This document shows positions 5,889 through 57,129 of a stretch of DNA of 64,000 bases, one piece after another. The first letter of the stretch is position 1. Every line of letters begins with the position of its first letter. Below the pieces are notes generated by a model. It saw only the letters and a list, made by a program, of their open reading frames with translations, ran no database searches and had not been told where the DNA came from. Origin of the DNA: an uncultured Bacilli bacterium (GTDB taxonomy: Bacteria; Bacillota_I; Bacilli_A; RFN20; CAG-826); NCBI GenBank assembly GCA_944369075.1, contig CALVXK010000003.1:30876-94875 (forward strand), written 5' to 3'. The translations under genes were made by a program, and so were the position numbers.

Positions 5889-8288
5889 TTATCCTTTAAT
5901 AACTATATTTACAATTCTACCTTTAACGTAAATTACTTTAGCAATTTCCTTACCTTCAATAAATTTCTTTACTTTCTCCGAAGATAATGCCTTTTCTTTA
6001 ACACTATTTTCATCTTCATCTACGTTAACTTCAATTGTATCTCTTAATTTACCATTTACTTGAATAGCAATTTTTGCAGTATTTTTTGTTAGTTTTGATT
6101 CATCATATGCTGGCCAAGAAGTATAAGTAATCATATCTTCATGTCCTAATATATGCCAAATTTCTTCTCCAACAAATGGACAAATACAATCAAACATTTT
6201 AATGAAATTTTCCATATAAGGCTTATAAATTGATTTAGCCTTATAAACTTCATTAATAAAGATCATCATTTGTGAAATAGCGGTATTAAATTGTAAAGAT
6301 TCAAAATCTTTTGTAACTTTTTTGACTGTATAGTTATAAACATAATCAAGTTCATGTGAATTTTCATCACTAAACTTAGCTACATAATCGCTTTCAGTAT
6401 AAAGACGATAAACTCTTTCAATAAATTTTCTTGAACCTTCACATCCACCATCATTCCAAGGTAATGAATCTTCTAATGGTCCCATAAACATTTCATAAAG
6501 TCTTAATGTATCAGCACCATACTTTGTAACAATATCATCTGGATTAATGACGTTTCCTCTAGATTTAGACATTTTTTCACCATTTGCACCTAAAATCATG
6601 CCTTGATGGAATAATTTTTTAAATGGTTCTTTGCATGATACAATACCCTTATCATAAAGATATTTGTGCCAGAAACGAGCATATAGTAAATGTAAAACCG
6701 CATGTTCTTGTCCGCCAACATATAAATCAACAGGAAGCCAGTGATCTAAAAGTTTTTTATCACCAATTTCTTTATCATTATGTGGATCAATATATCTAAT
6801 ATAGTACCAACAAGATCCTGCCCATTGAGGCATTGTGTTTGTTTCTCTAACACCTTCTTTCCCGTTTTTTGTTACATGTAACCAAGAAATTGCATGAACT
6901 AATGGAGATTCACCTGTTCCAGATGGCTTATATTCATCAAGTTCAGGCAAAACTAATGGTAAATTATCTTCTAATCCAACCGTTCCATCGTTATAGAAAA
7001 TAATTGGAATTGGCTCACCCCAATATCTTTGTCTAGAAAAAAGCCAATCTCTAAGTTTATAGTTAACTTTAAAATTACCTTTTCCAAGTTCAATTAATTT
7101 ATTAGTAATAGCTTTTTTAGCTTCATCAATCATCATTCCATTAATGAAATCTGAATTAATATGTTTTGCATCACCAGTAAAAGCCTTTTCAGAAACATCT
7201 CCTTCAAGTACTGGAATAATTTCTAGACCATATTTTTTAGCAAATACATAATCTCTATCATCATGAGCAGGGCAAGCCATAACAGCTCCACTCCCATAAG
7301 AAGCTAAAACATAATCTCCAATAAAGATAGGAATTTCTTTATTATTTATAGGATTAATTGCATAAGCACCAGTAAATACACCGGTTTTTTCTTTACTTGT
7401 TCCAGTTCTTTCTAGATCTGATTTTGATTCGCATTCTTTTACGTATTGTTCAACTTTATCTTTTTGTTCTTCAGCTGTAATCTTTTTAACTAATGGATGT
7501 TCTGGAGCTAAAGTGACAAAAGTTGCACCAAATAAAGTATCAGCTCTAGTTGTATAAACCTTAAATGATTCATTAAAACCTTTAATATCAAAAACAATTT
7601 CAGTACCATAACTTTTTCCAATCCAGTTTCTTTGCATTTCGATTGTAGAAGCTGGCCAATCAAGTTCAGCTAAATCATCAGCAAGTCTATCAGCATAAGC
7701 AGTAATTCTTAAGTTCCATTGTTTCATTGGTTTTCTAATTACAGGACAGCCGCCTCTTTCACTTTTTCCATCGATAACTTCTTCGTTTGCCAAAACAGTA
7801 CCAAGTTCTGGACAAAAGTTAACTGGTTTATAATCTATATAAGCAAGATTATCTTCATACATCATAGAGAAAATCTTTTGAGTCCATTTATAATATGATG
7901 GCTCACAAGTTGTTACTTCTCTATCATAATCATAAGAAAAGCCAAGTAATTGTAATTGTCTTCTAAAATTATTAATGTTTTTTATTGTAAATTCATATGG
8001 ATGTTTATTCATTTTCATTGCATATTGCTCGGCAGGCAAACCAAAAGCATCCCATCCAATTGGGTGAAGAACATTAAATCCTTGCATTCTCTTCATTCTT
8101 GCAATTATATCAGTTGCTGTATATCCTTCAGGGTGACCAACATGTAAACCTTGACCACTAGGGAAAGGAAACATATCTAATACATAATATTTTGGTTTGG
8201 AAAAATCATAGACATCGGTTTTATATTCTTTGTTTTTTAACCAGATTTCTCTCCATTTTTTCTCTACTTCTAAATGGTTATAAGCCAT
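5889..8288 (-). CDS. leuS: Leucyl-tRNA synthetase
   Basis: 799 aa with the HIGH variant HVGHPEGY, the KMSKS motif and the class Ia CP1 editing domain pattern. Confidence 0.97.
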
Positions 8289-8532: not shown

Positions 8533-9984
8533 TTAATTGTTATAAGAAAGAACTAATTCATATAATTCAAGATATTTATCAGCACTCTTATCCCAAGTAT
8601 GATCTGTTTTCATAGCATTATGTACAAGTTCATTAAATACTTTTTTATGATTAAAGAAAGTATCTAAGGCAAGATCAACGCACCATCTAGCTGCATCTTG
8701 ATTATAATCATCAAAACCAAAACCATTAGCAACATCTTGATTCTTTCTTTCTTTATCATAGCAAATAACGCTATCTTTTAGTCCCCCAGTTCTTCTAACT
8801 AAAGGTAAAGAACCATACCTATGAGCAATCATTTGTCCTAATCCACAAGGCTCAAATGCACTTGGCATAATAAAGAAATCACTAGAAGCATAAAGTTTAT
8901 GAGCAATATCATCGCTATATCCAATATAAACGAATGTATCGTTTGGATGACGAGCATATAAATCGTTAAACATTTGTTCAGTATCATATTGTCCGCTTCC
9001 TAAAACTGCAAAAGTTCCACCGTTTCCAATTAAATGCTCTGCCATAGCATAAATTAAATCTAATCCTTTTTGATCAGTTAATCTAGAAACTACTGCAAAA
9101 AGAGGTTTATTTTGATCTAGACCATGTTCATTAGCAAAAATTTCTTTATTTATTTTTTTATCGGTTAAACAATTTTTAACGTTATATTTATGATAAATTG
9201 AACTATCTTTTGATGGATCAAATTCTTTATAATCCATTCCATTAAGTATTCCAACAAAGTCATTTTGCCTTAAAACTAAGTCGTACCATAATCCCTTACT
9301 GCCTTCGACCGTTGTAAGTTCAAAAGCATGTGTAGGAGAAACAGTTGTAATTTTATCAGCAAATTTTATTCCGGCTTTTAAAGTAGAAACTTGGTTATCA
9401 AATCTAACACTTCCATTATCATATAACCAAAGTGGTAAATTAAATAAATCACCTAATGATTCTCTAGAAAGATATCCTTTAAATAATGGATTATGAATCG
9501 TCAAAACTGTTCTTATTTTTCCTAAAACTTGATCATTTTGATATAAATTCTTCAATATACAAGGAATCATACCGCCTTGCCAGTCATGAACATGACAAAT
9601 ATCAATTCTAAATGGTAAGTGCTTGATAAGTTCAATTACGGCATTTGAAAAGAAAGCAAATCTTTCTCCATCATCATAAAAACCATACAAACCACCATCT
9701 CTTGAAAAATAATAATCATTTTCAATAAAGAAATAGTCTATTCCGTCATGTAAACAATATAAAACATTGGCATTTTGTTCTCTCCAAGACATTTTTACAG
9801 GGAAAGAGTAAATAAAAGTTACATGATTTTTCTCAAAATCAAATTTTTTCTTATATAAAGGTGAAACAACTAGAACATTATGGCCTTTTTTAACAAATTC
9901 TTTGCTTAAAGAATAGGCAACATCGCCTAAACCACCAGTTTTAGAATAAGGAAGGCATTCACTTGTAGCCATTAAAATATTCAT
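8533..9984 (-). CDS. glgA: Glycogen synthase (ADP-glucose type)
   Basis: The N-terminal KTGGLGDV motif and a GT5 architecture are present, in 483 aa. Confidence 0.93.
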   Translation of the reverse strand: MNILMATSECLPYSKTGGLGDVAYSLSKEFVKKGHNVLVVSPLYKKKFDFEKNHVTFIYSFPVKMSWREQNANVLYCLHDGIDYFFIENDYYFSRDGGLYGFYDDGERFAFFSNAVIELIKHLPFRIDICHVHDWQGGMIPCILKNLYQNDQVLGKIRTVLTIHNPLFKGYLSRESLGDLFNLPLWLYDNGSVRFDNQVSTLKAGIKFADKITTVSPTHAFELTTVEGSKGLWYDLVLRQNDFVGILNGMDYKEFDPSKDSSIYHKYNVKNCLTDKKINKEIFANEHGLDQNKPLFAVVSRLTDQKGLDLIYAMAEHLIGNGGTFAVLGSGQYDTEQMFNDLYARHPNDTFVYIGYSDDIAHKLYASSDFFIMPSAFEPCGLGQMIAHRYGSLPLVRRTGGLKDSVICYDKERKNQDVANGFGFDDYNQDAARWCVDLALDTFFNHKKVFNELVHNAMKTDHTWDKSADKYLELYELVLSYNN

Positions 9985-9986
9985 AG

Positions 9987-11111
9987 TTATAAAATTTCTC
10001 CTTGAGGAACATAAATAATTGAGCCATCGTCGCTCTTAACTTCAACTTTATTTTCAAATCTACATAATTTATCAGCAATGACACCATCAAGATGAACACC
10101 AGATTTAATAATACAATCAGTGAAGATAATAGAGTTTTTAACACTAGCTCCTTCTTCAACGATAACATTTCTAGCTAAAATAGAATTATCGACTGTCCCA
10201 TAGACTGTACAACCATTAGCGATTAAAGAATCTCTAACAACTGCTTTTTGACCATATAAAACTGGCCTTGTATCATGGGTTCTAGTATAAATCTTCCATT
10301 CATTATCAAAGAAATGGCAAGAATCATGTCCAAGTAATTCTTTAAGTTCCATTGAAACATTGTAATATTTTTCTAATGAATTAACATAACGTACAGGGGC
10401 TTCACTCTTAATAGCGTGAATTGTTGCATCACCGTATTTTTGAATGAATGTCATCATATCAGTAATTGAGAAAGCTTTTGATAAAGAACGAGTTTTATTT
10501 AAGAAATCTTTTAAAACTTCTTTATTAAAGATAAATGTTTTAAGTCCTAAATAAACTTCATCGTCTTTCGAAGTTATTTCTTCTACTTTTTGAATATTTC
10601 CTAAGGCATTAATTGTATATTTATTTAAGCCAAGGAAATCAACACCAGCATTTTTAACAGGAGCATAAATACAAGAAACTCCTTTTCCGCTAGTAATATG
10701 TTCATCAATTACTTTTGAATAATCAATTCTTGTAATAAATCCAACAGGAATAACAATTACATATTTTGAACTTTGATCATAAAGGAAATAATCGTTAGCT
10801 CTAATATTATTAATATCTGTATTGAAAAATGGATTTTTTAAACCATCTTCATTTAACATCAAATTGAAATAACCTGTTTTTGAATTTTTTAAATATGTAT
10901 TATTATTTGTTAAATGTTTAACAACACTTCTAAAATGATCTTTAATCAAGATTCCAATATCATCAATACCAGAATTAGTTAAATTACTTAAAGCAAAATC
11001 AATAAAAGCATATCTACCTAAAACAGTTGTTGAAGCAACAGGTCTTTTTTCTGTTAAAACACCAAGTTCAGGCGATGCATGTAAATCAATAAGTGCAAAA
11101 ACGTTCTTCAT
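9987..11111 (-). CDS. glgD: Glucose-1-phosphate adenylyltransferase regulatory subunit
   Basis: The protein is GlgC-like with a left-handed beta-helix C-terminus. It lacks the GGxGxRL loop, and its position between glgC and glgA is as in Firmicutes. Confidence 0.8.
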   Translation of the reverse strand: MKNVFALIDLHASPELGVLTEKRPVASTTVLGRYAFIDFALSNLTNSGIDDIGILIKDHFRSVVKHLTNNNTYLKNSKTGYFNLMLNEDGLKNPFFNTDINNIRANDYFLYDQSSKYVIVIPVGFITRIDYSKVIDEHITSGKGVSCIYAPVKNAGVDFLGLNKYTINALGNIQKVEEITSKDDEVYLGLKTFIFNKEVLKDFLNKTRSLSKAFSITDMMTFIQKYGDATIHAIKSEAPVRYVNSLEKYYNVSMELKELLGHDSCHFFDNEWKIYTRTHDTRPVLYGQKAVVRDSLIANGCTVYGTVDNSILARNVIVEEGASVKNSIIFTDCIIKSGVHLDGVIADKLCRFENKVEVKSDDGSIIYVPQGEIL

Positions 11112-11113
11112 AA

Positions 11114-12247
11114 TTATTGTAAATTCCTTTCGTAATCTAAAAGGATAATTTCTCCTGTTCCTTTATTAATTACTTCATTTTCTTTAATTATTGTATTTGG
11201 GCCTAAAATTGCGTTTTCAACATAAGCACCTTTTTTAATAATAACGCCTGGCATTAAGACTGACTTAACAACTTTAGCATCTTTTTCAATTAAAACTTCG
11301 TTTGAAATTACAGATTCTTCAACATCCCCATAAATAAAAGCACCTTGGTTAATTAAACAATCTTTAACAACAGCCGATTTATCAATATATTGTGGGTAAG
11401 AGGATGTATCTTCACTATAAACTTTTGGATAATCATCAAAATGAATTGTATCGTCATTTCTTTGAGATGGTAAAAGTTCCATATTAGCTTGATGGAGTGA
11501 ATCAAGTGTTCCAACATCTCTCCAATAACCTTTAAATCTATATGCAACTAATTTTTGTTTATTATTTAGCATCTTAGGAATAATATTTTTGCCAAAATCA
11601 TGTTCACTATTAGGATCTTTAGCATCTTCTAATAAAGCTGTTTTTAAAACTTTATATGTAAATACATAAACACCCATAGAGGCAAGATTTGATTTAGGGA
11701 CTTTTGGTTTTTCAACGAATTTTGTAATTGTATCATTAGAATCAACTTCTAATATTCCGAATCTAGAAGCTTCTTTAATGTCAACTTCAAGAACCGAAAT
11801 TGTACAATCTGCTTTTGATTCAATATGAAGTTGAATCATTTTGTCATATGAAGTTTTATAAATATGATCACCAGATAAGATTAATACATATTTTGGATCT
11901 TCGTCGTCAAGAAATGCTAAGTTTTGATAAATTGCATCAGCAGTTCCTTTATACCAGTTAGCTCCATCTTCTGTTTGACGTGGGGCTAAAGCCACACAAG
12001 TTGAACCTACTCCATCAAAACCCCATTTTGCACCGTTTCCAATGTAGTTATTTAAAACAATACTTTCGTATTGAGTTAATACACCAACCGAGTCGATTGA
12101 TGAATTAGCTACGTTAGATAAAGAAAAATCTATGATTCTATATTTTCCACCAAAATAAACTGCTGGCTTAGCAACTCTTTTAGTTAATGCATGGAGTCTA
12201 GTGCCTTTTCCTCCAGCAAGAATCATTGCTACGACATTTCTACCCAT
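11114..12247 (-). CDS. glgC: Glucose-1-phosphate adenylyltransferase
   Basis: The ILAGGKGTRL nucleotide-binding loop is present, in 377 aa. A strong RBS (AGGGAGG) precedes the start. Confidence 0.93.
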   Translation of the reverse strand: MGRNVVAMILAGGKGTRLHALTKRVAKPAVYFGGKYRIIDFSLSNVANSSIDSVGVLTQYESIVLNNYIGNGAKWGFDGVGSTCVALAPRQTEDGANWYKGTADAIYQNLAFLDDEDPKYVLILSGDHIYKTSYDKMIQLHIESKADCTISVLEVDIKEASRFGILEVDSNDTITKFVEKPKVPKSNLASMGVYVFTYKVLKTALLEDAKDPNSEHDFGKNIIPKMLNNKQKLVAYRFKGYWRDVGTLDSLHQANMELLPSQRNDDTIHFDDYPKVYSEDTSSYPQYIDKSAVVKDCLINQGAFIYGDVEESVISNEVLIEKDAKVVKSVLMPGVIIKKGAYVENAILGPNTIIKENEVINKGTGEIILLDYERNLQ

Positions 12248-12316
12248 ATTTTCCTCCCTTTTTATATTATATTTTTAGGTAAAATACTTTTCTGATATCT
12301 ATATAATAAATCAAAT

Positions 12317-15300
12317 TTAATCTAATTTTGAGAAAATTCTTACACAAGATGAATTTTTTGTATGTAAAACTACTAATGTTTCGTCAACTAAAGGCGAAAT
12401 ATCTGGGATTTTATCGGTTGGACAAGAGATAATAACTTGAAGATTAAACTTTCTAAGAAGTTTAACAGCTTCTTTAATTCTTCCTCTATCCATTTTAGAA
12501 AATGCTTCATCAAATACGATGAGTCTGGAAGTATTTGCCATTTCTCCTTCTTGATTAACATGGTAAAGTTGAGCAAAGGAAGCAAGAACAGCAATGTAGA
12601 ATGGAGTTTGAGTTTCACCACCACTCTTCTTCTTAATCATTTTTGAAAGTCTTTGTTCTTCACCGCTTTCCTTATTAATAACAATAAGGTCAAAATCTAA
12701 GTAAGAACGATAATCGGTAAATCTTGCAATATTTTGAAGAAGTTCTTCATTACTTCCTTTATCATCGTTAACATCGACGATTTGTCTAAATAAATCTTCC
12801 ATGACATCTTTATATTTATTTAAGAATAAGGATTCATCTTCTCCGCCTTCAAGAATAATATCATCTTTTAACATGTCATAATATCTTCTAAAAACTAAAG
12901 AAGGTTTAACTGTAAAACGGTATAAATCGACACCAAAGGAAGATTCTTTTAAAGCACTATTTAAATTTTCAATTTGATCTTCGACATCACTTATTGCACC
13001 TCTAAGTTTAAAGATAAAATCATCTTTGAATTGTTGTGTAGCTTTTAAATAAGCATCATGAATTTGTTCGGTGTAATCTGGAAGTTTAACATCTCTAAAT
13101 TCTTTGAGCTCGTTTTCAAAAGTATCGTTATCTTTTGTATCTGGATCATAAGAAAGACGATATTCGTGCACATAATCTCTTCTTAATTTGCAAAGTTCAT
13201 TAAAAATATTGTTAAAAATATATTGAATTCTTGAAAGATTTGCATTAGCTTCGCTTAAAATTTCAATATATGATTTGCCTTGTTCAACTTTTTCTTTAAA
13301 GTAAGGTTCAGCTTTAGTTAAAACAAAAGAAACATCATAATTTTTATCTAAGGAAACTTTTCTTTCTTTAATTAAACTTTCTTCATTACTAATCTTATCG
13401 TTTTTTAATGATTCGATTTGTTTAGTCAAGTTACCTTTTTCTAAAAGTAAAGATTCTCTTTGAGCATTAACTTCTTTAATATCATCATCGACATCTTCTA
13501 AACGTTTATCTAAAGAAGCAATTAAAGCTGTATCTTGTTCGCTAAGTTCGTTATCAAGATATTCTAAAGTATCTTTATAGCCTTTTAGCTCGCTACTTCT
13601 AGCTAAAGATTTTAAAATGTGTTCGATTTCGCCATTAGATAAAAGTTCAAGATTATTAGCTTCGGTAATTAAATTATTTAATTCTTTATAATAAGAAATA
13701 TTTAGTAAATTAGATTTAAGTTGCTTTGCTTTTTCGTCAAAGAAACGTGAACCAATATCTTGCCCAATAAAACTTTCTTGATAGAGACGAGGATTGATTT
13801 TAGATAAAGTAAAATTACGATATAAATCACATTCTCTAGTTATACCATTTTGAGAAAGTCTAGCTTCTTCAATATCATCAGCTTTAGTAAGTCTACCAAT
13901 CAAGAAATTAGTATAAGCTCTTGCACCTTCATGCTCAGTTTCAATTTCTGAAGCCAAAGAATCTTCATTATACTCATAGTTTCTAGCAATAATTTTTTCT
14001 TGATCAACTAAGGCCGTTGAATAATAACGATATTCTTCAAGAAGTCTTCTCAAAATATTGTAAGCTTCTAAATAATATTTTGGTGCAACAAAAAGGTTGA
14101 ACTTTTGGGAGTAAAGATAACCTTCTATTGCATTTGCCCATTCTTCGTCTTTAATAGAAACTAAATCACAATATAATTCAACATCAATTTTCTTATTAAA
14201 TTTTAAAGATAATTCTTCTTGAAGTCTTTTCTTAATTAAAGTTAGACGTTGGTCAAAAGGTTTAGTGCCTTTTTTCATGTTGGCTTGTTCTTCTTTTAAA
14301 TTTTCAACACGTTTAGATAAACTTGAAATAGTTCTTGCTAATGAAATAGCTAAAGAAGAAACATTATCTTTAAAGTTTTTAGTAACATCTTTAAATTCAC
14401 TTAAATCATCTTTACTGACACTTAAAACATCATTTTCGATTTTTGATTTTAATGAAGTAGCAACCTCGCTAACTCTTTTAGAAGAGATTAAAATTTCCGA
14501 AATTTCTTCAGCTTTATCCTCATCAAGTGCATCTTTATCGACTTTATTTAAGTTTTCAAGTAAAGAATTGGATTCTTTTAAATATGAATTAACATAGTAA
14601 GATAAATCAGATTTTACAGCAGAGATTTCCTCATTTATCTCGTTAATTTTTTGATTTACTTCTTTCTTTTGGTTATATAAATCTTCGCTAATTTTAGCGA
14701 CATTATTATTCATTTTATCTTGAATCAAACGAACTTTTCTTTTCTCAAGTTCATTTAAATCAGATTTATATTCTTCTAGTTCATTATCAATTTCTTTAAT
14801 TCTATCTTCGCTTTTAACAATTTCTTCCTTAAAAGCTTTTAATTTTTCTTCACTAGAATAAAGTTCACATCTTTCGATTAAATATTTATTGAGTAAAAAA
14901 TCTTCTTCTCTTTCTTTATAAGAAGAATAGACTTTAGAAATTTCTTCAAGTTTATCAACTCTTTTCTTTATGTTTTCACTTTCAACTTGAAGTCTACGAT
15001 ATTGCAAAATATTTTCTTGAAGATGCGATAAATCTAAATTTTCTTGAGGATTACAGACATATTCAGTAATGAATGTAGTAATATCTGTTATTGGAGAAAA
15101 AGATGTTGATTTCTTTAAAAGTGAGAAATAAATATCTTTTAATCCGCCAAGTCTTTTCTTCAAGAATTCTTGATATTGTCTATTTGAATCAAAAAGATGA
15201 TATTTACCATCATAATCACTCTTTAAATATTTAACTAAGGCTTTATATTCAAGAGGAACTTTGTTTACAACAAATTCATTTTCTGGAATCTTATCTTCAA

Positions 15301-15688
15301 TGTTAAAGAAATGGTGTTCTTCGCTTCCATCTTCAAAAGTATCTAAACAAATACCTAAAACGAAATCTTTATTTTCAACATCATCATGAAATTCTATTGC
15401 AATATAAGATGTAAATCTTCCATTTCTTAAATATCTAAATCCACCAGATGTATCATCACCTATTTCACCTCTAAGATATCCTTTTAAGGTACGAGAAGAT
15501 TTTCCTAAAGCTGCTTTATTAAAGTTATAACCAGTTGTATCACCTAATAAAACAACTTCAATACCATCGATTAAAGTTGATTTACCGCTACCATTTAAAC
15601 CGGTTAAAAATACGATAGGTTTAATATCAAAAGTTTCGTTCCGAAAGTAATGCCAATTTATAATTTTAATTTTCGTAATAAGTTTCAT
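12317..15688 (-). CDS. jetC: SMC-like ATPase of MukB/MksB/JetC type
   Basis: 1123 aa. N-terminal Walker A: FLTGLNGSGKSTLIDGI. A very long coiled-coil (K/E/L-rich) is interrupted by a hinge-like segment (EEWANAIEGYLYSQKFNLFV). C-terminal signature SGGETQTPFYIAVLASFA and Walker B RLIVFDEAFSKMD. The start overlaps the upstream gene by 23 nt. Confidence 0.7.
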   Translation of the reverse strand: MKLITKIKIINWHYFRNETFDIKPIVFLTGLNGSGKSTLIDGIEVVLLGDTTGYNFNKAALGKSSRTLKGYLRGEIGDDTSGGFRYLRNGRFTSYIAIEFHDDVENKDFVLGICLDTFEDGSEEHHFFNIEDKIPENEFVVNKVPLEYKALVKYLKSDYDGKYHLFDSNRQYQEFLKKRLGGLKDIYFSLLKKSTSFSPITDITTFITEYVCNPQENLDLSHLQENILQYRRLQVESENIKKRVDKLEEISKVYSSYKEREEDFLLNKYLIERCELYSSEEKLKAFKEEIVKSEDRIKEIDNELEEYKSDLNELEKRKVRLIQDKMNNNVAKISEDLYNQKKEVNQKINEINEEISAVKSDLSYYVNSYLKESNSLLENLNKVDKDALDEDKAEEISEILISSKRVSEVATSLKSKIENDVLSVSKDDLSEFKDVTKNFKDNVSSLAISLARTISSLSKRVENLKEEQANMKKGTKPFDQRLTLIKKRLQEELSLKFNKKIDVELYCDLVSIKDEEWANAIEGYLYSQKFNLFVAPKYYLEAYNILRRLLEEYRYYSTALVDQEKIIARNYEYNEDSLASEIETEHEGARAYTNFLIGRLTKADDIEEARLSQNGITRECDLYRNFTLSKINPRLYQESFIGQDIGSRFFDEKAKQLKSNLLNISYYKELNNLITEANNLELLSNGEIEHILKSLARSSELKGYKDTLEYLDNELSEQDTALIASLDKRLEDVDDDIKEVNAQRESLLLEKGNLTKQIESLKNDKISNEESLIKERKVSLDKNYDVSFVLTKAEPYFKEKVEQGKSYIEILSEANANLSRIQYIFNNIFNELCKLRRDYVHEYRLSYDPDTKDNDTFENELKEFRDVKLPDYTEQIHDAYLKATQQFKDDFIFKLRGAISDVEDQIENLNSALKESSFGVDLYRFTVKPSLVFRRYYDMLKDDIILEGGEDESLFLNKYKDVMEDLFRQIVDVNDDKGSNEELLQNIARFTDYRSYLDFDLIVINKESGEEQRLSKMIKKKSGGETQTPFYIAVLASFAQLYHVNQEGEMANTSRLIVFDEAFSKMDRGRIKEAVKLLRKFNLQVIISCPTDKIPDISPLVDETLVVLHTKNSSCVRIFSKLD

Positions 15689-16322
15689 CTTCTTTTACCT
15701 CATCATTTTCGTTTAAGGAATTTATTTGATCAAGTGCATTTGACATTGCAGCAACTTTTTCATTGTCTAAAGCATATACAATTGAAGGAAGAATATAAAA
15801 AGCAACATTTCCTTCATCATAATTACCACTAACTTTATTTAAAATATTATGCTGGACTAAAAATCTTAAAGATTTAGCCAGATTTCTACCAGTAAGTTTT
15901 TTATTTGGAAGTAAAATTCCATGTTCTAACATCGTTCTAATTAAAGACTGAGTTGTTAAATAAATAGCTTCGCTTGTAGATGAAGATTGATCTCTTTCAG
16001 TTTCATAAATTAATCTTAAAGTAAAAATTAACAAAGAAGTTTCTCTATCAAGACGAATATGGTTTTCGTTATTCTCGTTTAATAAAGCAACAACACCTAA
16101 AATAGCATCTTTTTCGATTCTCCGATTAGAAAAAGAAAGATAAGAATTGATCAATTCATAATTTTTTTCAATAAAACGATAAGTAGGGGAAATTTTAATA
16201 ATTTTTTCTTTTGTATCAAAAACATCTCTAACAATAAAACCTTTAAGTAAAATTGTATTGACTACACTTCCAAATTGGTTTTTCTCGCCAAGAGAAAGTT
16301 CATTATATTTTTCTTCAAACAT
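15666..16322 (-). CDS. jetB: MksE/JetB-like (DUF4194-type) small subunit
   Basis: 218 aa. The tandem winged-helix-like pattern, acidic C-terminal tail and position between the kleisin-like and SMC-like genes fit JetB/MksE. Its ATG shares one base with the upstream TAA, giving TAATG at 16320..16324. Confidence 0.6.
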   Translation of the reverse strand: MFEEKYNELSLGEKNQFGSVVNTILLKGFIVRDVFDTKEKIIKISPTYRFIEKNYELINSYLSFSNRRIEKDAILGVVALLNENNENHIRLDRETSLLIFTLRLIYETERDQSSSTSEAIYLTTQSLIRTMLEHGILLPNKKLTGRNLAKSLRFLVQHNILNKVSGNYDEGNVAFYILPSIVYALDNEKVAAMSNALDQINSLNENDEVKEDETYYEN

Positions 16323-17782
16323 TATTCATTTTCCTCCTTAACTTGTTCGTCTTTTTTAACAAAAGTGAAATCAGGAATTAAATATTCACCGTTAATAATT
16401 TCTTTGTTTTCGTTTAGTTCAATTGTATAAAAAGAAGTATCATCATCGTATTTACAAATAGCTAAAATCAAACAAATAATTGATTCTTCAGAATCTAAAA
16501 CCATATCTTTAGTTGAAATTTCTTTCTTTCCAGAAAGAGAAGACTCAATAAAAGAATAAACCTTATCATCACTAAACATATTTGATGTATGTTCAATAAA
16601 TTCATCCATCATGACATCGCTAGTGTCATCAAAATAAGGGATTTCCATTGGTTCACCTTTTTCTTTAAATTTCTTTAGAATTGGTAAAATTAAAGAATCA
16701 GAATCAATGTAGCCTTGTTCATAAAAATCAAACGAATCATTCATCATATCTAAGATTTTATTGCGGAAACGATTATCGTCTTTGCTCGCAGCAAAATACT
16801 TAAAAATATTTTCTAAATGACCTTTAATTGTTCGATCAGAATTGTTTAAATATAAAATCTTTTGTGTAGAAGCTTTTGTGTATTGACTATTTTCTTTATC
16901 AATTGAGTTAATTAATACATTAAGATTAGAGTAGGTATCGGTTATATAATTGATTTTAGTAATAATATCGTTTTCAATTTCTTGCTTGTTATTATTTTTT
17001 GCACTTAATGAAGCAAGTAAAACTAATTTATTTCTAATCTCTTTATTATTTAACCATCGATCAAGAATTTTAATAATTGGTCTTTTAAATTTAGCAACGC
17101 TATCAAATGTTTTTAAAGGATGGTAATATCTATCACTAATTTTCTTTTTATAAATATCAAAATAAGAGTGCAAAACTTCATTTGTATCAAAAAGTTTAGT
17201 TAACCTGTTTTGGAAAATTCTAATTGAGTGAGTTAAAGTAACAAGCTCAACTTTTAATTTCTTTGTATTTTCATAACACCTTAAAAGAGTTGCATAAATC
17301 AAATCATCAAGTTCTTCATCTTCTAATTTTAGTTCACTATAAGTGGAATGAACTAAAGATACATAAGGTGATTCTTCATCACTTACAATATCATTAAAAG
17401 TTTTAAGCAAAGAAATTGTATAAGGAGGTAAAACAACTACTTCTTCATAATTATCAATATCCATTGAAATATCAATCCATCCAGTTTCTTCTAATCTTCT
17501 TAAAATAAAAGAAGCTTTTGATGAATCAGTAAAAGATATTCCTTCTTCTAGTTCTTCTTTACTTAGTTCTTCTTCTAAATCTAAAGAATCTAAATTCGAT
17601 TCTTTAGATTTAATTGCACTTAAAAAATCATTCTTTTTTATAACACTTTCTTCATTTTGAAGTAATGAATAAAGAATTTCTAAAGCTTCAATATAAATTT
17701 CTCTATTTTTTCCAGAAAATATAGAGAAATAATTACTAGGAACTATATTAAATAAATTCATAATTTGTCTAAAAAATAACAT
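16322..17782 (-). CDS. jetA: MksF/JetA-like kleisin-type subunit (DUF3375-like)
   Basis: 486 aa and the first gene of the three-gene operon. Its size, order and acidic linker regions match JetA/MksF. The start is uncertain: ATG at 17782 or Met8 at 17761. Confidence 0.55.
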   Translation of the reverse strand: MLFFRQIMNLFNIVPSNYFSIFSGKNREIYIEALEILYSLLQNEESVIKKNDFLSAIKSKESNLDSLDLEEELSKEELEEGISFTDSSKASFILRRLEETGWIDISMDIDNYEEVVVLPPYTISLLKTFNDIVSDEESPYVSLVHSTYSELKLEDEELDDLIYATLLRCYENTKKLKVELVTLTHSIRIFQNRLTKLFDTNEVLHSYFDIYKKKISDRYYHPLKTFDSVAKFKRPIIKILDRWLNNKEIRNKLVLLASLSAKNNNKQEIENDIITKINYITDTYSNLNVLINSIDKENSQYTKASTQKILYLNNSDRTIKGHLENIFKYFAASKDDNRFRNKILDMMNDSFDFYEQGYIDSDSLILPILKKFKEKGEPMEIPYFDDTSDVMMDEFIEHTSNMFSDDKVYSFIESSLSGKKEISTKDMVLDSEESIICLILAICKYDDDTSFYTIELNENKEIINGEYLIPDFTFVKKDEQVKEENE

Positions 17783-17940
17783 TAAAATTATATCATTAAT
17801 AGGCTTTATAAAAAAGCAAAAATATTGTTTTTTCTAAGGTCAAATAAGATAGTAATTTTAAGGATTATTTATAGCAAAAGATTAACTAATTTTATTAGAT
17901 CAAAGCACTAAGAAACTCGATTATATCCCTTTTTTTATTG

Positions 17941-17969
17941 TTGCAGGGCACTTCCTTTTGTGGTATTAT
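17941..17969 (+). promoter_or_regulatory. Candidate sigma-A promoter for rpmB
   Basis: TTGCAG (17941..17946), a 17-nt spacer ending in TG, then TATTAT (17964..17969). Confidence 0.5.
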
Positions 17970-18003
17970 CTTTAAGCATTAATTGAAAAAGGAGGTCTCG
18001 AAG

Positions 18004-18195
18004 ATGTCTAGAGTATGCCCAATTACAGGTAAACATCCAATTAGCGGAAATAAACGTTCACACTCACTTATTGCTACACGTAGAAGATGGGATGTCAATC
18101 TCCACACCTATAAAATTGAAATTAACGGAAAAATCTGTAAAGTTAGAATGAGTGCTAGAGCTTATAGAACACTCAATAAATCTAACGCTAAATAA
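18004..18195 (+). CDS. rpmB: 50S ribosomal protein L28
   Basis: MSRVCPITGK...SARAYRTL is present. The start is trimmed to the ATG at 18004, behind AAGGAGG. The track ORF begins at an upstream TTG. Confidence 0.93.
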   Translation: MSRVCPITGKHPISGNKRSHSLIATRRRWDVNLHTYKIEINGKICKVRMSARAYRTLNKSNAK

Positions 18196-18909: not shown

Positions 18910-19569
18910 TTACTCTCCTTTTAATAAAGAAATTGCCTTACTTCGTGACTTTGCTTTAAAAATATATGAACCAGAAACTAATATATCAGCTCCTTTTTCA
19001 ATACATTTTTTTGAAGTTTTATCATTAATCCCACCATCTACTTCAATTAAAAAGTGATAGGAATATTCCTTTCTTATTTTATCAAGAATTTCAATTTTAT
19101 TTAATGAATTTATCATAAATTCTTGCCCACCAAAACCAGGTTCAACACTCATTACCAAAACAAGGTCTAAATATGGCAAAAATTCTTTGATTTTTTCAAC
19201 TTCTGTATTTGGTTTAATTGATAAACCTACTTTAACTCCTTCTTTATGAATTAATTCAATTAAAGGTAAAATTTCCTCTTTTTTAATGGCTTCATAATGA
19301 AAAGTTATAATATTTGCTCCGTTTTTTACAAATTCTAAATAATATTTTTTTGGATCCGTAATCATTAAATGAACATCAATAATTAACGAAGTAACATCTT
19401 TTATGCATTTTAAAACATATGGTCCAAAAGAAATATTGTTAACAAAATGACCATCCATTACATCGAAATGTAAGTAAGAAGCACCTTCTTCTTTCAATGA
19501 ACTTATTTCTTTCTCTAAATTTTTAAAATCAGCCGATAAAATTGATGGAGCAATAAAGATTTTTTTCAT
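18910..19569 (-). CDS. rpe: Ribulose-phosphate 3-epimerase
   Basis: APSILSADF, HFDVMDGHFV and VMSVEPGFGGQ motifs are present. Confidence 0.93.
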   Translation of the reverse strand: MKKIFIAPSILSADFKNLEKEISSLKEEGASYLHFDVMDGHFVNNISFGPYVLKCIKDVTSLIIDVHLMITDPKKYYLEFVKNGANIITFHYEAIKKEEILPLIELIHKEGVKVGLSIKPNTEVEKIKEFLPYLDLVLVMSVEPGFGGQEFMINSLNKIEILDKIRKEYSYHFLIEVDGGINDKTSKKCIEKGADILVSGSYIFKAKSRSKAISLLKGE

Positions 19570-19583
19570 ACCTATATTTTATA

Positions 19584-20486
19584 TTATTTTCTTCTTTTAG
19601 AGTTAAAGATTCTATCAAAAAAATTGAATGATTTAGAAATAACAGATTTATTTTGATAAAGTTTTTCGATGTCGTTTTTCATTTCATTTGCTGATTTATA
19701 TCTTAAAGATAAATCTTTATTAGTTGCTTTAAAAACAATATCTTCTGTTTCTTTTGGAAGAGAAACCATAAAACTTAAAGGAGAAGGAATATCATATTTT
19801 ATATGGGCGATTGCTATTTTATTAATGTTATCTTCATCTCCTTTATTCATAAAAGGTAAACATCCTGTTAAAAGTTCTAAAAAAGTCACACCAGCACTAT
19901 AAATATCACTTTGTTCGTTAGCTTTTGCTCCTTTTATAACTTCAGGCGCCATATAATGAACTGTTCCAACAACTTTTTTATATTCATCAATTCCCATTTT
20001 CGAACCTTTAATTATAGAAATACCAAAATCTGAAACTTTAGCAATTCCATCAGTTCCATAAAAGATATTTTGAGGTTTAATATCACGGTGAATAATACCT
20101 TTTTGATGCATAAAAGCTAAAGCAGATAAAACTTGAATCATAATTTGACAAGATTCAGCTAAAGAAAAATAACCTTTAAAGTTTAAAGCATCTTTTAAAG
20201 TTTGACCTTTTTGGAATTCATTTACGATAAAAGCTTGTCCTTTATATTTACCATAATTATAAATTTTAACAATGTTTGGGTGATATAAAGATGATGCAAT
20301 ACGGGCTTCATTTTCAAATCTAATTTGATTTTCACGAATATTCATCGAAGCCTCATTTAAAATCTTTATCGCGACAATTCTTTTCATTATAATGTCATGA
20401 GCCTCATAAACATCGCTCATCCCACCATGTCCTAAAAAAGCTCTTACTTTATATCTATCATCAATCATGTCCGAGATATTAATCAT
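19584..20486 (-). CDS. Hanks-type Ser/Thr protein kinase, kinase domain only
   Basis: GHGGMSDVYEA...VAIK, HRDIKPQN and DFGIS motifs are present. The start is set at the ATG at 20486, which overlaps the PP2C stop as ATGATTAA. About 300 aa, with no TM or PASTA region. Confidence 0.85.
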   Translation of the reverse strand: MINISDMIDDRYKVRAFLGHGGMSDVYEAHDIIMKRIVAIKILNEASMNIRENQIRFENEARIASSLYHPNIVKIYNYGKYKGQAFIVNEFQKGQTLKDALNFKGYFSLAESCQIMIQVLSALAFMHQKGIIHRDIKPQNIFYGTDGIAKVSDFGISIIKGSKMGIDEYKKVVGTVHYMAPEVIKGAKANEQSDIYSAGVTFLELLTGCLPFMNKGDEDNINKIAIAHIKYDIPSPLSFMVSLPKETEDIVFKATNKDLSLRYKSANEMKNDIEKLYQNKSVISKSFNFFDRIFNSKRRK

Positions 20487-21234
20487 TATTTGACTCCCAT
20501 AAAATTGCAGAAATATTATCGCTTCCACCATTAAAGTTAGCTAAACTAACCAAAGAATTAATCTTTTCATCAACCGTATTTTTATTATTCAAAGTAGCTT
20601 CAATATCTTTTTTATCAACATTATTATAAAGTCCATCGCTACAAAGAAAAACGCTTTCTCCGTGATATTCATAAATATTAATATCAAAAGAAACAGTTGG
20701 GAAAAGCCCAATTGCATTAATTAAATAATGTTTTTTAGGATGAGTTTCGGCTTCTTTGCTACTTATCTGTCCTGATCTTAAAAGATAATTTACATAAGTT
20801 TGATCTTCTGTTTTTTGTACTAGCTTTCCATCAACTAAAAAATAGCATCTAGAATCGCCAGCATTTAAAATAATAATCTTATCTTTATGAATTAAAGCTA
20901 AACATAAAGTTGTTCCACATCCTTTATAATTTTCATCAAAATCTTGAGTTCTAAAAATATATTTATTTATGGCTTTAACTTCTTTTATTAACCAGAAATA
21001 TGCGTTAAGTACTGAAAGAAATTTATCTTTAGCTTTAAAATCTCTTTCTAAAAATTCTTTAATTGTTTCTGAGGCAAAATCACCTTTTTTATGTCCACCC
21101 ATTCCATCAGCAACAAAAAGCAAAACATCATTTGAAAAATTAACGAAGCCCATAACTTGATCTTCGTTTGTTTTTCTAATCTTTCCAATATCACATTTAT
21201 AGGCAAAAATGCCGTTATACTTATTTCTTTTCAT
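20479..21234 (-). CDS. PP2C-family Ser/Thr phosphatase (Stp/PrpC)
   Basis: NEDQ, ADGMGGH and GGSDNIS motifs are present, and the gene is paired with the kinase. Confidence 0.88.
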   Translation of the reverse strand: MKRNKYNGIFAYKCDIGKIRKTNEDQVMGFVNFSNDVLLFVADGMGGHKKGDFASETIKEFLERDFKAKDKFLSVLNAYFWLIKEVKAINKYIFRTQDFDENYKGCGTTLCLALIHKDKIIILNAGDSRCYFLVDGKLVQKTEDQTYVNYLLRSGQISSKEAETHPKKHYLINAIGLFPTVSFDINIYEYHGESVFLCSDGLYNNVDKKDIEATLNNKNTVDEKINSLVSLANFNGGSDNISAILWESNND

Positions 21235-22264
21235 TTTTTGCTCTCAATTGCCCACATGCAGCATCAATATCAGTTCCAAATTCCTTTCTAATTGTAGCTG
21301 TAACACCACATTTTGTTAAGGTATCCAAAAAATCATGTACTGATTTCTCATCACTTCTTTGATATACAAGTTCTTTAATTGGATTATATGGAATTAAATT
21401 TACATAGGCTAAAGTTCCTTTGATTAACTTAGCAAGTTCTTTAGCGTTTTCTTTAGAATCATTTAATCCTTTTAATAAAATATATTCAAAAGTAACTCTT
21501 CTTCCAGCTTCTTTTTCGTAATATTTAACTGCCGACATAAGTTCATCCATAGGGTATTTCTTGGATATTGGCATAATTTTATTACGAATTTCGTCATTTG
21601 GGGCATGTAAAGATATTGCTAAATTAATTTGTAAACCTTCCTTAGCATATCTTCTTATTCCTTCAACAAGTCCACAAGTTGAAACAGTTATATGTCTTGC
21701 TCCAATGGCAAAACCATAAGGATGATTTAATATACGTACAAAATCCAAGACATTATCGTAGTTATCGAAAGGTTCGCCAGTTCCCATTACAACAATATGA
21801 GTAACTCTTTTATTAGGATCTTCTTCTTTTAATAAATCATCTAAAACTAAAACTTGGCCAACCATTTCAGATGTTTCTAAGTTCCTAGTTTTCTTTAAAA
21901 ATCCTGAAGCACAAAATGCACAACCCATGTTGCAACCAACTTCACTAGAAACACAAGCTACATTTCCATAGTTATATCGCATTAAAACAGTTTCAACTAA
22001 AGCGCCATCTTCCATTTGAAGTAATAACTTAATTGTTCCGTCACTACTTACTTGTTTTTTAAAAATAGTCGGTTTATTTAAGTTAAAATCTTTCTTTAAA
22101 ACTTCCCTAAAAGAAGCAGAAATATCGCTCATTTCATCAAAATTTGTAACTCTTTTTTCGTAAATCCATTTAAAAAGTTGAGTAGCGCGATACTTCTTTT
22201 GGAAATATTCGTTAACTAGTAATTCTTCAAGTTTTTCTATTTTAAAGTTATAAAGGTTAAACAT
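21221..22264 (-). CDS. rlmN: 23S rRNA/tRNA A2503 C2-methyltransferase (radical SAM)
   Basis: The CNMGCAFCASG radical-SAM cluster and the C-terminal ACGQL motif are present. Confidence 0.92.
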   Translation of the reverse strand: MFNLYNFKIEKLEELLVNEYFQKKYRATQLFKWIYEKRVTNFDEMSDISASFREVLKKDFNLNKPTIFKKQVSSDGTIKLLLQMEDGALVETVLMRYNYGNVACVSSEVGCNMGCAFCASGFLKKTRNLETSEMVGQVLVLDDLLKEEDPNKRVTHIVVMGTGEPFDNYDNVLDFVRILNHPYGFAIGARHITVSTCGLVEGIRRYAKEGLQINLAISLHAPNDEIRNKIMPISKKYPMDELMSAVKYYEKEAGRRVTFEYILLKGLNDSKENAKELAKLIKGTLAYVNLIPYNPIKELVYQRSDEKSVHDFLDTLTKCGVTATIRKEFGTDIDAACGQLRAKNEKK

Positions 22265-23532
22265 TATTTAATTCTCCTAATCAAAGCAAAATACAAAATC
22301 GAATTTTCTTCTTTAGTTGGAACATACATTCGTTGTAAGTCTAAAGAATAACTATCTTGATGTTTTTCAATAAAATCTTTTACAACATATGCAGTTTCAT
22401 TAAGATTCAAGGTTGGAACTATATAAAGTAGCACTCCATTAAATGCTAATTTTTTTGATAAAGAAACTAGTCCTTCTTTTTGATTTTTAATAAGTTCATC
22501 AAAAGAAGAAGGATCAAAAAATAACGAGTAATCAGGTTCTTTTCTAAATATTTCAAAATTAGAAGACTTAGGTGCATAAAGAATAAAATGTTGTTCTTCT
22601 TTAATTACATCACCAATTTGCTTCTCGCTAGAAGAAAAAGTTTTCACGTAATCAAAATTATATTCGTTAATAGTCGTAAAAAGTTTATTTTCTAATGGTA
22701 ATGAGGAGACAAAAGATAACTTGTTATTCTTATCGGCAAATTTTCTTAAAAAATCATAACAAACAGTGTCTTCGTCACCAATAAAACAAGTTAAATTTGA
22801 ATTAGTGTAATCTTCTACTTCATCTAAAACAAGTTGAGTTGCAAATTGAGAAGAATAGATTATTCCATCATGATATGCATCTTCTTTACGAATTGAATAA
22901 TCTAATAAAAATTCATAAAAATATGAATTAATTTTTTTATAATTTGAATTAGGTTTAAAGGATTTCATGTAGTTAACTGCCACAAATTGTCTAGGCATAG
23001 ATGAAATCTCATAAACAATTCTTAATCCATTAATACGACCATATTGCTTAGTTATAAGCTTAATAAGCCAGTCTGGCTTATTAAATCTTAAAGAATAGTA
23101 ACTAATACTTCCTTTTTTAACATCAAAAAATAGATAATTTCTTTTTTTAGAAATTACTTCTCTAATATACGTAATTTCGTTTTTTGTTAAAACATAACCT
23201 TTTTGAATAATAAAAGTCAAAAAAGATGTAAACATTGCATTAGCATCTTCTTTATGAGTAAAAGCATTATTTACATAAAGTAAACCTAATTTGATTAATT
23301 CATCGCTTTCTTTTGGAAATTTTAATAACTTTGATAAATGGCAAATTAAAAAATAATTACGGAAAAATAAAGAAGAGATACGAGCTATCTCAAGTTGATC
23401 GTATCTTGCTACGTCTTTAGTATACCTTTTAAATACATTCTTGAAAGGTTCACGATTTTTAAAGACTTCTTTTATAATGTTGGTTGAAGTTTCATATAAA
23501 TCCATAACGACAATTAATTTGCTTTTATTCAA
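22264..23532 (-). CDS. RsmB/Sun-like protein with degenerate catalytic motifs
   Basis: The NusB-like N-terminus, PDWLIKL...YG and the overall RsmB layout are in the syntenic rsmB slot. The SAM loop reads LTCFIGDEDT, motif IV reads YAPKSS and motif VI reads VPTLN, so neither catalytic Cys is present. The track start is TTG at 23532; the true start is uncertain. Confidence 0.6.
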   Translation of the reverse strand: MNKSKLIVVMDLYETSTNIIKEVFKNREPFKNVFKRYTKDVARYDQLEIARISSLFFRNYFLICHLSKLLKFPKESDELIKLGLLYVNNAFTHKEDANAMFTSFLTFIIQKGYVLTKNEITYIREVISKKRNYLFFDVKKGSISYYSLRFNKPDWLIKLITKQYGRINGLRIVYEISSMPRQFVAVNYMKSFKPNSNYKKINSYFYEFLLDYSIRKEDAYHDGIIYSSQFATQLVLDEVEDYTNSNLTCFIGDEDTVCYDFLRKFADKNNKLSFVSSLPLENKLFTTINEYNFDYVKTFSSSEKQIGDVIKEEQHFILYAPKSSNFEIFRKEPDYSLFFDPSSFDELIKNQKEGLVSLSKKLAFNGVLLYIVPTLNLNETAYVVKDFIEKHQDSYSLDLQRMYVPTKEENSILYFALIRRIK

Positions 23533-23590
23533 AAGCCTTTTACTTTTGAATAATTATAAGTTAGAAAACTAAATAATTAAATACTTGACA

Positions 23591-24067
23591 TTATTTATCT
23601 TTATTTTCTTTTTTGGCCTTTTCTAGTTTTTCCTCAAAACCTTCAAAAGCATTACCTAAATATATGTCTTCATTTGATGTTGTTTCATCTTCGCTTTCTT
23701 CGTAAAAATCAACAGAATTTTCTTCATCCATGTAACGTGGATAATCTTCATTTTCAAATTTATGATAGTTATCAATGGAAAAGTAATAGAAGATACATTC
23801 TAAATGAACTGTGACATTTTTAATATAATTTTCAATAATTTTATAAGCATCTTCTTCTAAGACACTAACTTTTTTTGGTGCATGAACTTCTACTAAAATT
23901 GAGTATGTATTTTGATCAACACCTTCATGAACATATAAACATTCAGGTGCAAAAAAATTTATTTCATCTTTAGAAATTTCATATAAATTTGCAAGTTTAG
24001 ATGTCATGTCTCTAGATAAATCATTTAATAAATAAGGATCAATCCCATAAACTTTTATTGTTATCAT
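23591..24067 (-). CDS. Hypothetical protein, tautomerase-fold DUF1904-like N-domain plus acidic tail (tentative)
   Basis: 158 aa behind the RBS AAGAGG. The N-terminal roughly 110 aa resemble the DUF1904 pattern from memory, and the C-terminal tail is E/D-rich. Confidence 0.35.
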   Translation of the reverse strand: MITIKVYGIDPYLLNDLSRDMTSKLANLYEISKDEINFFAPECLYVHEGVDQNTYSILVEVHAPKKVSVLEEDAYKIIENYIKNVTVHLECIFYYFSIDNYHKFENEDYPRYMDEENSVDFYEESEDETTSNEDIYLGNAFEGFEEKLEKAKKENKDK

Positions 24068-55195: not shown

Positions 55196-55198
55196 AAA

Positions 55199-55987: not shown

Positions 55988-55992
55988 ATATA

Positions 55993-56891: not shown

Positions 56892-57114
56892 AAACAAATA
56901 AAGATTGCATCTCTATCAGATGCAATCTTAAATTCTATAAAAGAGTTTAACTTTACACCGATAGCGCCTCTAGATAAATCTAGGAGTCTATAGGAATATT
57001 CTTCCATAGCCCAACCAACATTTATGCCTAAATGTTGTTTCGGCAACCATACCTTTCACTTATTTCTTTGAATGCCTTCTCCATAAGTTACTCTTATAGG
57101 CTGCGCCTCTATCA
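56892..57114 (-). promoter_or_regulatory. Lysine riboswitch (L-box) with terminator
   Basis: On the minus strand the P1 helix is TGATAG...CTATCG. Conserved blocks are AGAGGCGC, AAGAGTA, TGGAGAAGG, GTGAAAGG, GTTGCCGAA and TGGTTGGGC, with the 3' AGAGGCGCTATCGG. The terminator is AAGATTGCATCT-gatag-AGATGCAATCTT plus a T-rich tract (56929..56892). Confidence 0.8.
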
Positions 57115-57129
57115 ATCTTTATGTGCAAT

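Follow-up and report, generated by a model that had tools for sequence, protein, structure and literature searches.

The jetABC operon described here occupies positions 12317-17782, on the minus strand, of a 64,000-nucleotide stretch of contig CALVXK010000003.1 (assembly GCA_944369075.1) from an uncultured Bacilli bacterium, and the whole of this stretch is referred to below as the window. The operon encodes the three core subunits of a type I Wadjet system, that is, the kleisin JetA, the KITE subunit JetB and the structural maintenance of chromosomes (SMC) ATPase JetC. The gene for the JetD nuclease is absent from its side. The locus is best read as a domesticated, nuclease-free loop extruder of the MksBEF type that would act on the host chromosome, a reading to which we assign a probability of about 0.6. 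The genes of the operon and the motifs of its ATPase are as follows.

16322-17782, minus strand: jetA, mksF-like kleisin, 486 aa as an open reading frame (ORF); likely start at Met8 (17761), which gives 479 aa
15666-16322, minus strand: jetB, mksE-like KITE subunit, 218 aa; translationally coupled to jetA and overlapping jetC
12317-15688, minus strand: jetC, mksB-like SMC ATPase, 1123 aa
15575-15601, minus strand: JetC Walker A, GLNGSGKST, residues 30-38
12602-12625, minus strand: JetC ABC signature, SGGETQTP, residues 1022-1029
12500-12523, minus strand: JetC Walker B and D-loop, LIVFDEAF, residues 1056-1063

An initial annotation, made from the letters of the DNA, had described three minus-strand ORFs of 486, 218 and 1123 aa at these positions and had named them JetA-JetB-JetC, or MksF-E-B, on the basis of their sizes, order and motifs. 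The three ORFs were recovered exactly, with the JetC motifs beginning at residues 30, 1022 and 1056. The gene junctions were likewise as described. The jetA stop and the jetB start have one base in common (TAATG at 16324-16320; minus-strand GAATAATGTTT), with an AAGGAGG ribosome-binding site directly upstream of this junction; jetB shares 23 nt (15666-15688) with jetC, and glgC starts (12247) 69 nt beyond the jetC stop (12317). The true start of JetA is probably Met8, since the profile matches begin at residue 8 and the gene caller gives 479 aa in a 99 % identical copy; in relatives, JetA measures 472-479 aa.

The assignment of the three proteins to type I Wadjet JetA, JetB and JetC is unambiguous, and searches against Pfam and PADLOC profiles upheld the kleisin, KITE and SMC-ATPase identities that had been proposed. 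JetA matches the Pfam family JetA PF18982 (7.5e-89, residues 37-477 on profile positions 2-434 of 434) and the PADLOC profile JetA1 PDLC00449 (1.9e-120, residues 8-480 on positions 1-463 of 464). JetB matches DUF4194 over the Pfam cut-off (1.9e-14) and JetB1 PDLC00502 over its full length (5.7e-60). For JetC, the match to JetC1 PDLC00519 has an E-value of 0 and 1087 bits, with residues 1-1121 on positions 1-1087 of 1097, and the Pfam domains AAA_29 (3.3e-16) and SbcC_Walker_B (2.8e-25) are present. JetC thus combines Walker A, signature and Walker B motifs with a long coiled coil, as expected of an SMC ATPase. The earlier impression that the subunits were too divergent for a safe family assignment is contradicted by these full-length matches, and so is the suggestion of a divergent, uncharacterised subtype: the core is an ordinary type I one.

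Other SMC-like families are much more distant. JetC reaches 1.7e-08 with Lamassu LmuB, against E = 0 for JetC1, and stays well below threshold with SMC_N (19 bits against a 40-bit cut-off) and TIGR02168 (19.8 against 567), and no SMC hinge family matched it. With MukB, it shares a 24-bit match at the N-terminus that is confined to the P-loop region, and neither JetA nor JetB matched a Muk family profile (MukF, MukE). There is no SbcD partner and the genes adjoining jetC are jetA and jetB, so the locus belongs neither with Rad50/SbcCD nor with Lamassu, the two families that had been named as possible alternatives.

The core families, the A-B-C order, the protein sizes and the ATPase motifs are common to the window and to type I Wadjet JetABCD systems, whose references include those of E. 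coli GF4-3 (PDB 8AS8/8BFN/8Q72/9QXT) and P. aeruginosa PA14 (PDB 8DK1-3). In single-sequence searches of the PDB, the solved proteins appear only as distant relatives of those in the window: JetC gave weak N-terminal matches only, and JetA and JetB gave none. By contrast, a profile of JetC relatives matches E. coli JetC (9qxt/8as8) at 1e-23 and P. aeruginosa JetC at 2e-18. B. cereus Q1 carries another system of this type, reported by Doron et al. in 2018. The window departs from this canonical form in three respects, namely the missing jetD, a shorter and acidic loop in JetC, and a fixed position in the core genome instead of a defence island.

The first of these differences was addressed with a JetD1 hidden Markov model (HMM), built from 16 ORFs found directly downstream of jetC in distant relatives, two of which were confirmed as JetD1 by PADLOC (1.2e-134 and 6.9e-109). 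All six frames were searched with hmmsearch --max at E <= 10. In the 64 kb of the window this model found no match, which agrees with the earlier observation that no JetD/MksG gene stands next to jetABC. As a positive control, the same model recovered jetD in 20 Clostridia-type loci, each time as the gene that immediately follows jetC. When the other larger ORFs of the window were scanned with Pfam, housekeeping and metabolic genes were detected, and no Toprim, DUF2220, DUF3322, integrase or transposase domain. The absence of flanking mobile-element genes, also reported earlier, was thereby corroborated, and no defence genes adjoin jetABC either.

The nuclease-less arrangement is not peculiar to this genome. 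When one genome per GTDB species was scanned with a JetC profile, 80 loci were obtained, each together with at most 10 kb of sequence on either side. In 20 of them jetD follows jetC; 56 form a JetD-less group from Bacilli, which comes to 57 sequences with the window, and the four others are scattered loci without JetD within 10 kb. The JetD1 HMM matched nothing in the loci of the 57 sequences, so that the comparison of neighbourhoods across relatives, proposed at the outset, indicates that the nuclease-less form is conserved. The 57 JetCs make up a single clade with a neighbour-joining bootstrap of 100/100 in a 1103-column alignment, and its sister group is formed by the JetD-bearing Clostridia-type systems. 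The latter, which are canonical JetABCD systems, all come from Clostridia, Peptococcaceae or Alicyclobacillus-type genomes, and their JetCs are 34-39 % identical to that of the window. Within the JetD-less clade, the lowest identity to the window protein is 35 %. These data point to a single, ancient loss of JetD, before the clade had diverged to that level.

Relatives of the window JetC at 57-99 % identity number in the hundreds and carry the labels Ca. Onthovivens, Acholeplasmataceae and Bacilli bacterium, while those of the JetD-less clade include Ca. Onthovivens, Ca. Enterosoma and uncultured Bacilli. We read the members of the clade as belonging mostly to the order RFN20. Ca. Onthovivens is placed in the RFN20 family CAG-826. 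Ca. Enterosoma belongs to the RFN20 family CAG-288 (PMC8035907). RFN20 is an order of gut bacteria with small genomes, of which the families CAG-826 and CAG-288 are predicted to be devoid of peptidoglycan (PMC10868615, PMC7301438); SMC proteins are not mentioned in these two papers.

Two sets of loci from the scan deserve a separate comment. Six GTDB representative records (L010, L014, L015, L018, L039 and L082), titled Phocaeicola dorei, Slackia, Parabacteroides, Gemmiger, Lachnospiraceae or Prevotella 'cleanbin', contain a low-GC locus of the RFN20 type, and these records look like mislabelled or contaminated bins. The four JetABC loci outside the clade that have no JetD within 10 kb (L057, L061, L069 and L075) keep the hydrophobic JetC loop and the MW start of JetB that are discussed below. 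They may correspond to recent losses, insertions, split systems or systems with JetD in trans. In L069, two uncharacterised ORFs of 560 and 522 aa come after jetC.

The second difference concerns the site at which the nuclease docks. In the cleavage state of E. coli JetABCD, the aCAP domain of JetD docks on the 'larynx' of the JetC head, where F919 enters a pocket of JetD, and the F919E substitution abolishes restriction; the N-terminus of JetB is also predicted to contact JetD (bioRxiv 10.1101/2023.11.03.565488). The position of F919 was located by aligning a profile of the C-terminal head to PDB 9qxt/8as8 and, independently, with MAFFT --add, and both alignments put it in a loop flanked by two conserved anchors. 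In the window, this loop is the following.

12824-12853, minus strand: JetC head 'larynx' loop, LEGGEDESLF, residues 946-955; D951 aligned with E. coli JetC F919

All 20 JetCs linked to a jetD have a loop of the form EG[YFLH][NST][ILVM][AFSYL][ST], in which F919 aligns to a hydrophobic dyad; two of them have an extra Gly before the aromatic residue of the loop. In all 57 JetCs of the JetD-less clade, by contrast, one residue is missing from the loop, which is acidic. The window protein, with L946-EGGEDES-LF955 and D951 at the F919-aligned position, would consequently lack the hydrophobic docking residue, as far as this can be inferred from a low-scoring alignment with E. coli. The correlation between loop type and clade is perfect. 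Moreover, the hydrophobic loop is kept in the four scattered JetD-less loci outside the clade (4/4), and thus the loop tracks the clade and not the mere lack of an adjacent jetD. The N-terminus of JetB follows a similar pattern, beginning with MW in every JetD-linked system but with MF in the JetD-less clade, although this is a weaker and more conservative difference than that of the JetC loop.

These observations bear directly on the idea that the operon belongs to a canonical Wadjet system that still cleaves plasmids with a JetD encoded elsewhere in the genome. The DNA inspected, that is, 64 kb of the source genome and flanks of 10 kb in its relatives, leaves room for such a gene, and the four loci outside the clade, with their JetD-type docking loop, might work in this way. 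For the clade itself the idea appears quite improbable. In every JetD-linked relative (20/20) jetD directly follows jetC; clade JetCs have acidic residues where the hydrophobic residue aligned with F919 should be; JetB begins with MF instead of MW, and the JetD-less state has been stable since before the divergence to 35 % JetC identity. An earlier proposal that the effector of a plasmid-sensing extruder is encoded elsewhere, or is of a new type, is weakened, but not refuted, by the same altered loop.

Candidates for a replacement effector were nevertheless sought next to jetC. In several RFN20-like families, an uncharacterised protein of 300-350 aa, here called c19, is encoded between jetC and glgC; its N-terminal hydrophobic segments resemble two transmembrane helices. 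A smaller protein of about 145 aa, c52, which looks like a small membrane protein, is sometimes found at the same place. Neither matches a Pfam or PADLOC profile. Example genes are given below.

L043:13976-14908, plus strand: c19; similar genes, of this type or of c52, in L025, L040-L045, L052, L062, L067 and L082
L043:13423-13857, plus strand: c52

Both were rejected as a replacement effector or as a degenerate JetD, as the hhalign probability between c19 and JetD is 0.5 %, PADLOC gives no match, and both genes are absent from the window. c19 and c52 are restricted to some families, and no conserved new gene accompanies jetABC across the clade.

The third difference lies in the genomic position of the operon. 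The neighbouring features in the window are listed below.

17983-18195, plus strand: rpmB (ribosomal protein L28), divergent upstream neighbour; Pfam Ribosomal_L28 on orthologues
17783-17982, no strand: jetA-rpmB divergent intergenic region, the presumed promoter region of the operon
12248-12316, minus strand: jetC-glgC spacer of 69 nt, which carries the glgC ribosome-binding site AAGGGAGG and no terminator
8533-12247, minus strand: glgC-glgD-glgA, downstream context outside the SMC complex; Pfam NTP_transferase/Hexapep and Glyco_transf_5 on orthologues

The placement of the operon between rpmB and the glycogen genes, as first annotated, was therefore correct, and the glycogen block consists of glgC-glgD-glgA; the 799-aa ORF beyond glgA (5889-8288) is leuS and not a glycogen gene. 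The same arrangement recurs in relatives. In most members of the clade glgC-glgD-glgA come after jetABC, in 32 species directly, separated by a median of about 33 nt, and the linkage of jetABC to glgCDA is seen in loci L007-L046, L074, L079 and L084 besides the window (8533-17782). About 36 species have the divergent rpmB upstream of jetA, some of them with 43-54 % G+C, and in divergent families a pullulanase-type gene stands upstream of jetABC. The same jetABC-glgCDA arrangement occurs on the 1.08 Mb contig ERZ2606006 NODE_12, which we take to be a near-complete genome. The association of this SMC operon with glycogen genes spans the whole clade.

Apart from the glgC ribosome-binding site, the spacer between jetC and glgC has no feature, and no terminator-like hairpin was found in it; moving downstream from jetC along the minus strand, none appears until 8337-8312, past the end of glgA. 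It is probable from this layout that jetABC and glgCDA share one transcript. In the rpmB-jetA spacer, a promoter scan gave consensus-like matches that were no commoner than in shuffled sequence.

The operon also evolves like the genes around it. With respect to a 99 % identical strain, the ratio of nonsynonymous to synonymous substitution rates (dN/dS) is 0.077 for jetA, 0.083 for jetB and 0.064 for jetC, and 0-0.13 for neighbouring genes. At 73 % JetC identity, the identities of JetA, JetB and JetC (71-74 %) equal those of def, rpe and glgA. All 57 JetCs of the clade retain the Walker A, signature, Walker B and D-loop motifs, G30, G35, K36 and T38 of JetC are invariant among 28 relatives, and the three ORFs are intact in each species examined. 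Thus, jetABC is under purifying selection equal to that of its housekeeping neighbours, and it appears to be a vertically inherited core gene set, unlike a mobile defence island.

Synteny, dN/dS and the conservation of motifs together rule out a decaying, functionless remnant of a defence system. Such a remnant might have been suspected from the loss of JetD, an essential component of the canonical system. Nevertheless, intact ORFs in all species examined, catalytic motifs preserved in every clade member, dN/dS values of 0.06-0.08 and the retention of 5.5 kb in genomes as small as about 1.08 Mb leave this explanation effectively refuted.

The same evidence has to be set against the possibility of an immunity that does not depend on a nuclease. 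JetABC could still sense small circular DNA by extruding it completely and restrict it without cutting, either by trapping, compacting or silencing plasmids and episomes, as Smc5/6 does with viral episomes when it silences them, or by passing them to an unlinked host nuclease. Smc5/6 does restrict extrachromosomal DNA without a dedicated nuclease, and a new partner would be in keeping with the acidic loop that, throughout the clade, is conserved in place of the docking loop. Defence systems, however, usually turn over fast in variable islands, while jetABC is syntenic, vertically inherited and housekeeping-like in at least 57 species. In addition, no defence genes adjoin it, and no conserved new gene travels with it through the clade, c19 and c52 being present in some families and absent from the window. 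For these reasons, immunity of this kind seems unlikely.

A domesticated loop extruder on the chromosome, therefore, remains the favoured reading; this was one of the options considered initially, as a nuclease-free condensin, and it gains from the clade-wide vertical inheritance, the purifying selection and the lost JetD-docking loop. According to this reading, the complex of JetA kleisin, JetB KITE dimer and JetC ATPase would be complete and active. Its Toprim nuclease, JetD, would have been lost permanently, and jetABC would have joined the core gene set of small-genome gut Bacilli of RFN20 and related groups. The spacer between rpmB and jetA would hold the promoter of jetABC, which glgCDA probably share as part of the same transcript. 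JetABC would still load onto or entrap DNA and extrude loops with ATP, as is the case for JetABC in general, and with no nuclease to activate it might behave as a condensin like MksBEF or MukBEF, compacting and individualising sister chromosomes.

Several considerations weigh against this reading. The equivalence with F919 comes from a low-scoring profile alignment (E ~1e-7) between distant JetCs, so that it can only be inferred. The replacement loop is itself conserved and acidic, which could reflect a new partner rather than plain loss. In the literature, a chromosomal role of JetABC proper is undocumented for any JetABCD system. Finally, if these bacteria have Smc-ScpAB, it is less obvious why a genome of about 1 Mb would require another condensin.

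With regard to this last point, Smc, ScpA and ScpB were searched for with B. subtilis sequences, and Smc also with motif regexes, as were FtsY and RNase III. Neither the window nor 87 loci showed an smc, scpA or scpB gene; these are loci that cover up to about 10 kb around jetABC and hence a small fraction of each genome. Within the same limits, the motif regexes found no ftsY or rnc in them. The notion that jetABC occupies the slot of smc in the order rnc-smc-ftsY was refuted, as the flanks resembled acpP-rnc ... ftsY by size only. In effect, Pfam identified FtsK, an M16 peptidase, AcpS, a pullulanase-type enzyme and a PlsC-like acyltransferase in the upstream flanks of divergent relatives, and the downstream gene is c19.

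It is conceivable, if rather doubtful, that JetABC took over from Smc-ScpAB and is now the sole chromosomal SMC complex of RFN20 and its close relatives, which would amount to a second, independent takeover of the MukBEF kind, with chromosome maintenance passing to a former anti-plasmid system. Were Smc-ScpAB absent from these genomes, such a replacement would have taken place with the JetD-bearing sister clade still extant and the lost docking loop as its molecular scar, and the acidic loop and the linkage to glgCDA could reflect a new regulatory input.

The three-gene operon of the window resembles, by description, that of the nuclease-free MksBEF complexes of P. aeruginosa PAO1 and M. smegmatis, in which kleisin, KITE and SMC subunits are also encoded without MksG/JetD. 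The MksBEF of P. aeruginosa is thought to derive from a JetABCD system that lost JetD, and it helps to organise and segregate the chromosome, whereas MksB of M. smegmatis has been reported as a condensin. MksBEF usually co-occurs with Smc-ScpAB, and both of these hosts carry the two complexes. In contrast to MksBEF, which is described as scattered and likely spread by horizontal gene transfer, the operon of the window is clade-wide, syntenic and vertical, and its JetD loss is an independent one, in Bacilli, nested within the type I Wadjet systems of Firmicutes.

MukBEF of gamma-proteobacteria offers a parallel of another sort, as a KITE-based SMC complex that became fixed in a lineage as the housekeeping condensin, which is what is proposed here for JetABC; a Wadjet-like origin has been suggested for MukBEF. 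At about 1480 aa, MukB is longer than the JetC of the window (1123 aa), and the Muk profiles set the two complexes apart, as described above. Smc-ScpAB, in turn, has in common with the window the general SMC/kleisin/KITE architecture and, presumably, loop extrusion. It differs in its partners, ScpA and ScpB in place of JetA and JetB, and in the SMC_N and hinge families, from which JetC is excluded by the scores given above.

It has been proposed in reviews that chromosomal condensins, such as MksBEF and MukBEF, arose from Wadjet-like defence systems through loss of the nuclease. The known examples are old and have diverged in sequence, and this makes the transition hard to study. Nuclease-free MksBEF complexes have thus already been described; the operon of the window adds an unusually clean, order-wide and independently derived case that has an extant JetD-bearing sister group and an identifiable change at the interface. 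The clade is a cleaner natural experiment, with a single, well-supported loss, JetD-bearing nearest relatives at 34-39 % identity, a change in the predicted docking loop and core-gene behaviour in genomes down to about 1 Mb in size. It also offers constructs, such as loop swaps or the adding back of JetD from the sister clade, for asking what turns a plasmid-killing extruder into a chromosome organiser. For annotation pipelines, a rule that demands four genes misses these operons, while one that accepts any JetABC over-calls 'Wadjet defence' in RFN20.

Some further features of the window are worth recording. Its G+C content is 23-36 % in 2-kb bins, the GC skew is negative in nearly all bins and the majority of genes are on the minus strand. 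The rpmB ORF, counted from a TTG, has 70 aa, and an internal ATG (MSRVCPITGK...) is probably the true start, given that orthologues are called at 63-64 aa. Beyond rpmB, the gene order at 18910-24067 was compared with that of L025, L029, L030, L035, L045 and L056, and with the ylo gene order of Bacillus. In this region, a PrkC-like Ser/Thr kinase (19584-20531, minus strand) has only 315 aa; its orthologues have 298-300 aa, and in these only kinase domains were recorded, with no PASTA repeats seen. So short a kinase would fit the peptidoglycan-deficient lifestyle predicted for the RFN20 family CAG-826. As one departure from the Bacillus order, the lineage of the window lacks c24, a gene of about 285 aa that separates prkC from rpe in several relatives and may, judging from where it lies, correspond to rsgA/cpgA. 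As another, there is no ORF of the size of fmt between def (23591-24067) and rsmB (22264-23532).

At the edge of the window, a 635-aa ORF (62068-63975, minus strand) matches neither Pfam nor PADLOC profiles and lacks an identical protein on record. Poorly characterised genes, for DUF5677, Mbeg1-like and DUF1848 proteins, lie among metabolic genes (34307-35470, minus strand; 36962-38059, minus strand; 44079-45005, plus strand). The DUF1848 protein matches the PADLOC profile for DRT-associated DUF1848 (1e-34), with no reverse transcriptase nearby. Finally, a lysine riboswitch (56954-57119, minus strand; 87 bits) is found upstream of an amino-acid ABC transporter operon at 54170-56877, which encodes a substrate-binding protein, a permease and an ATPase.

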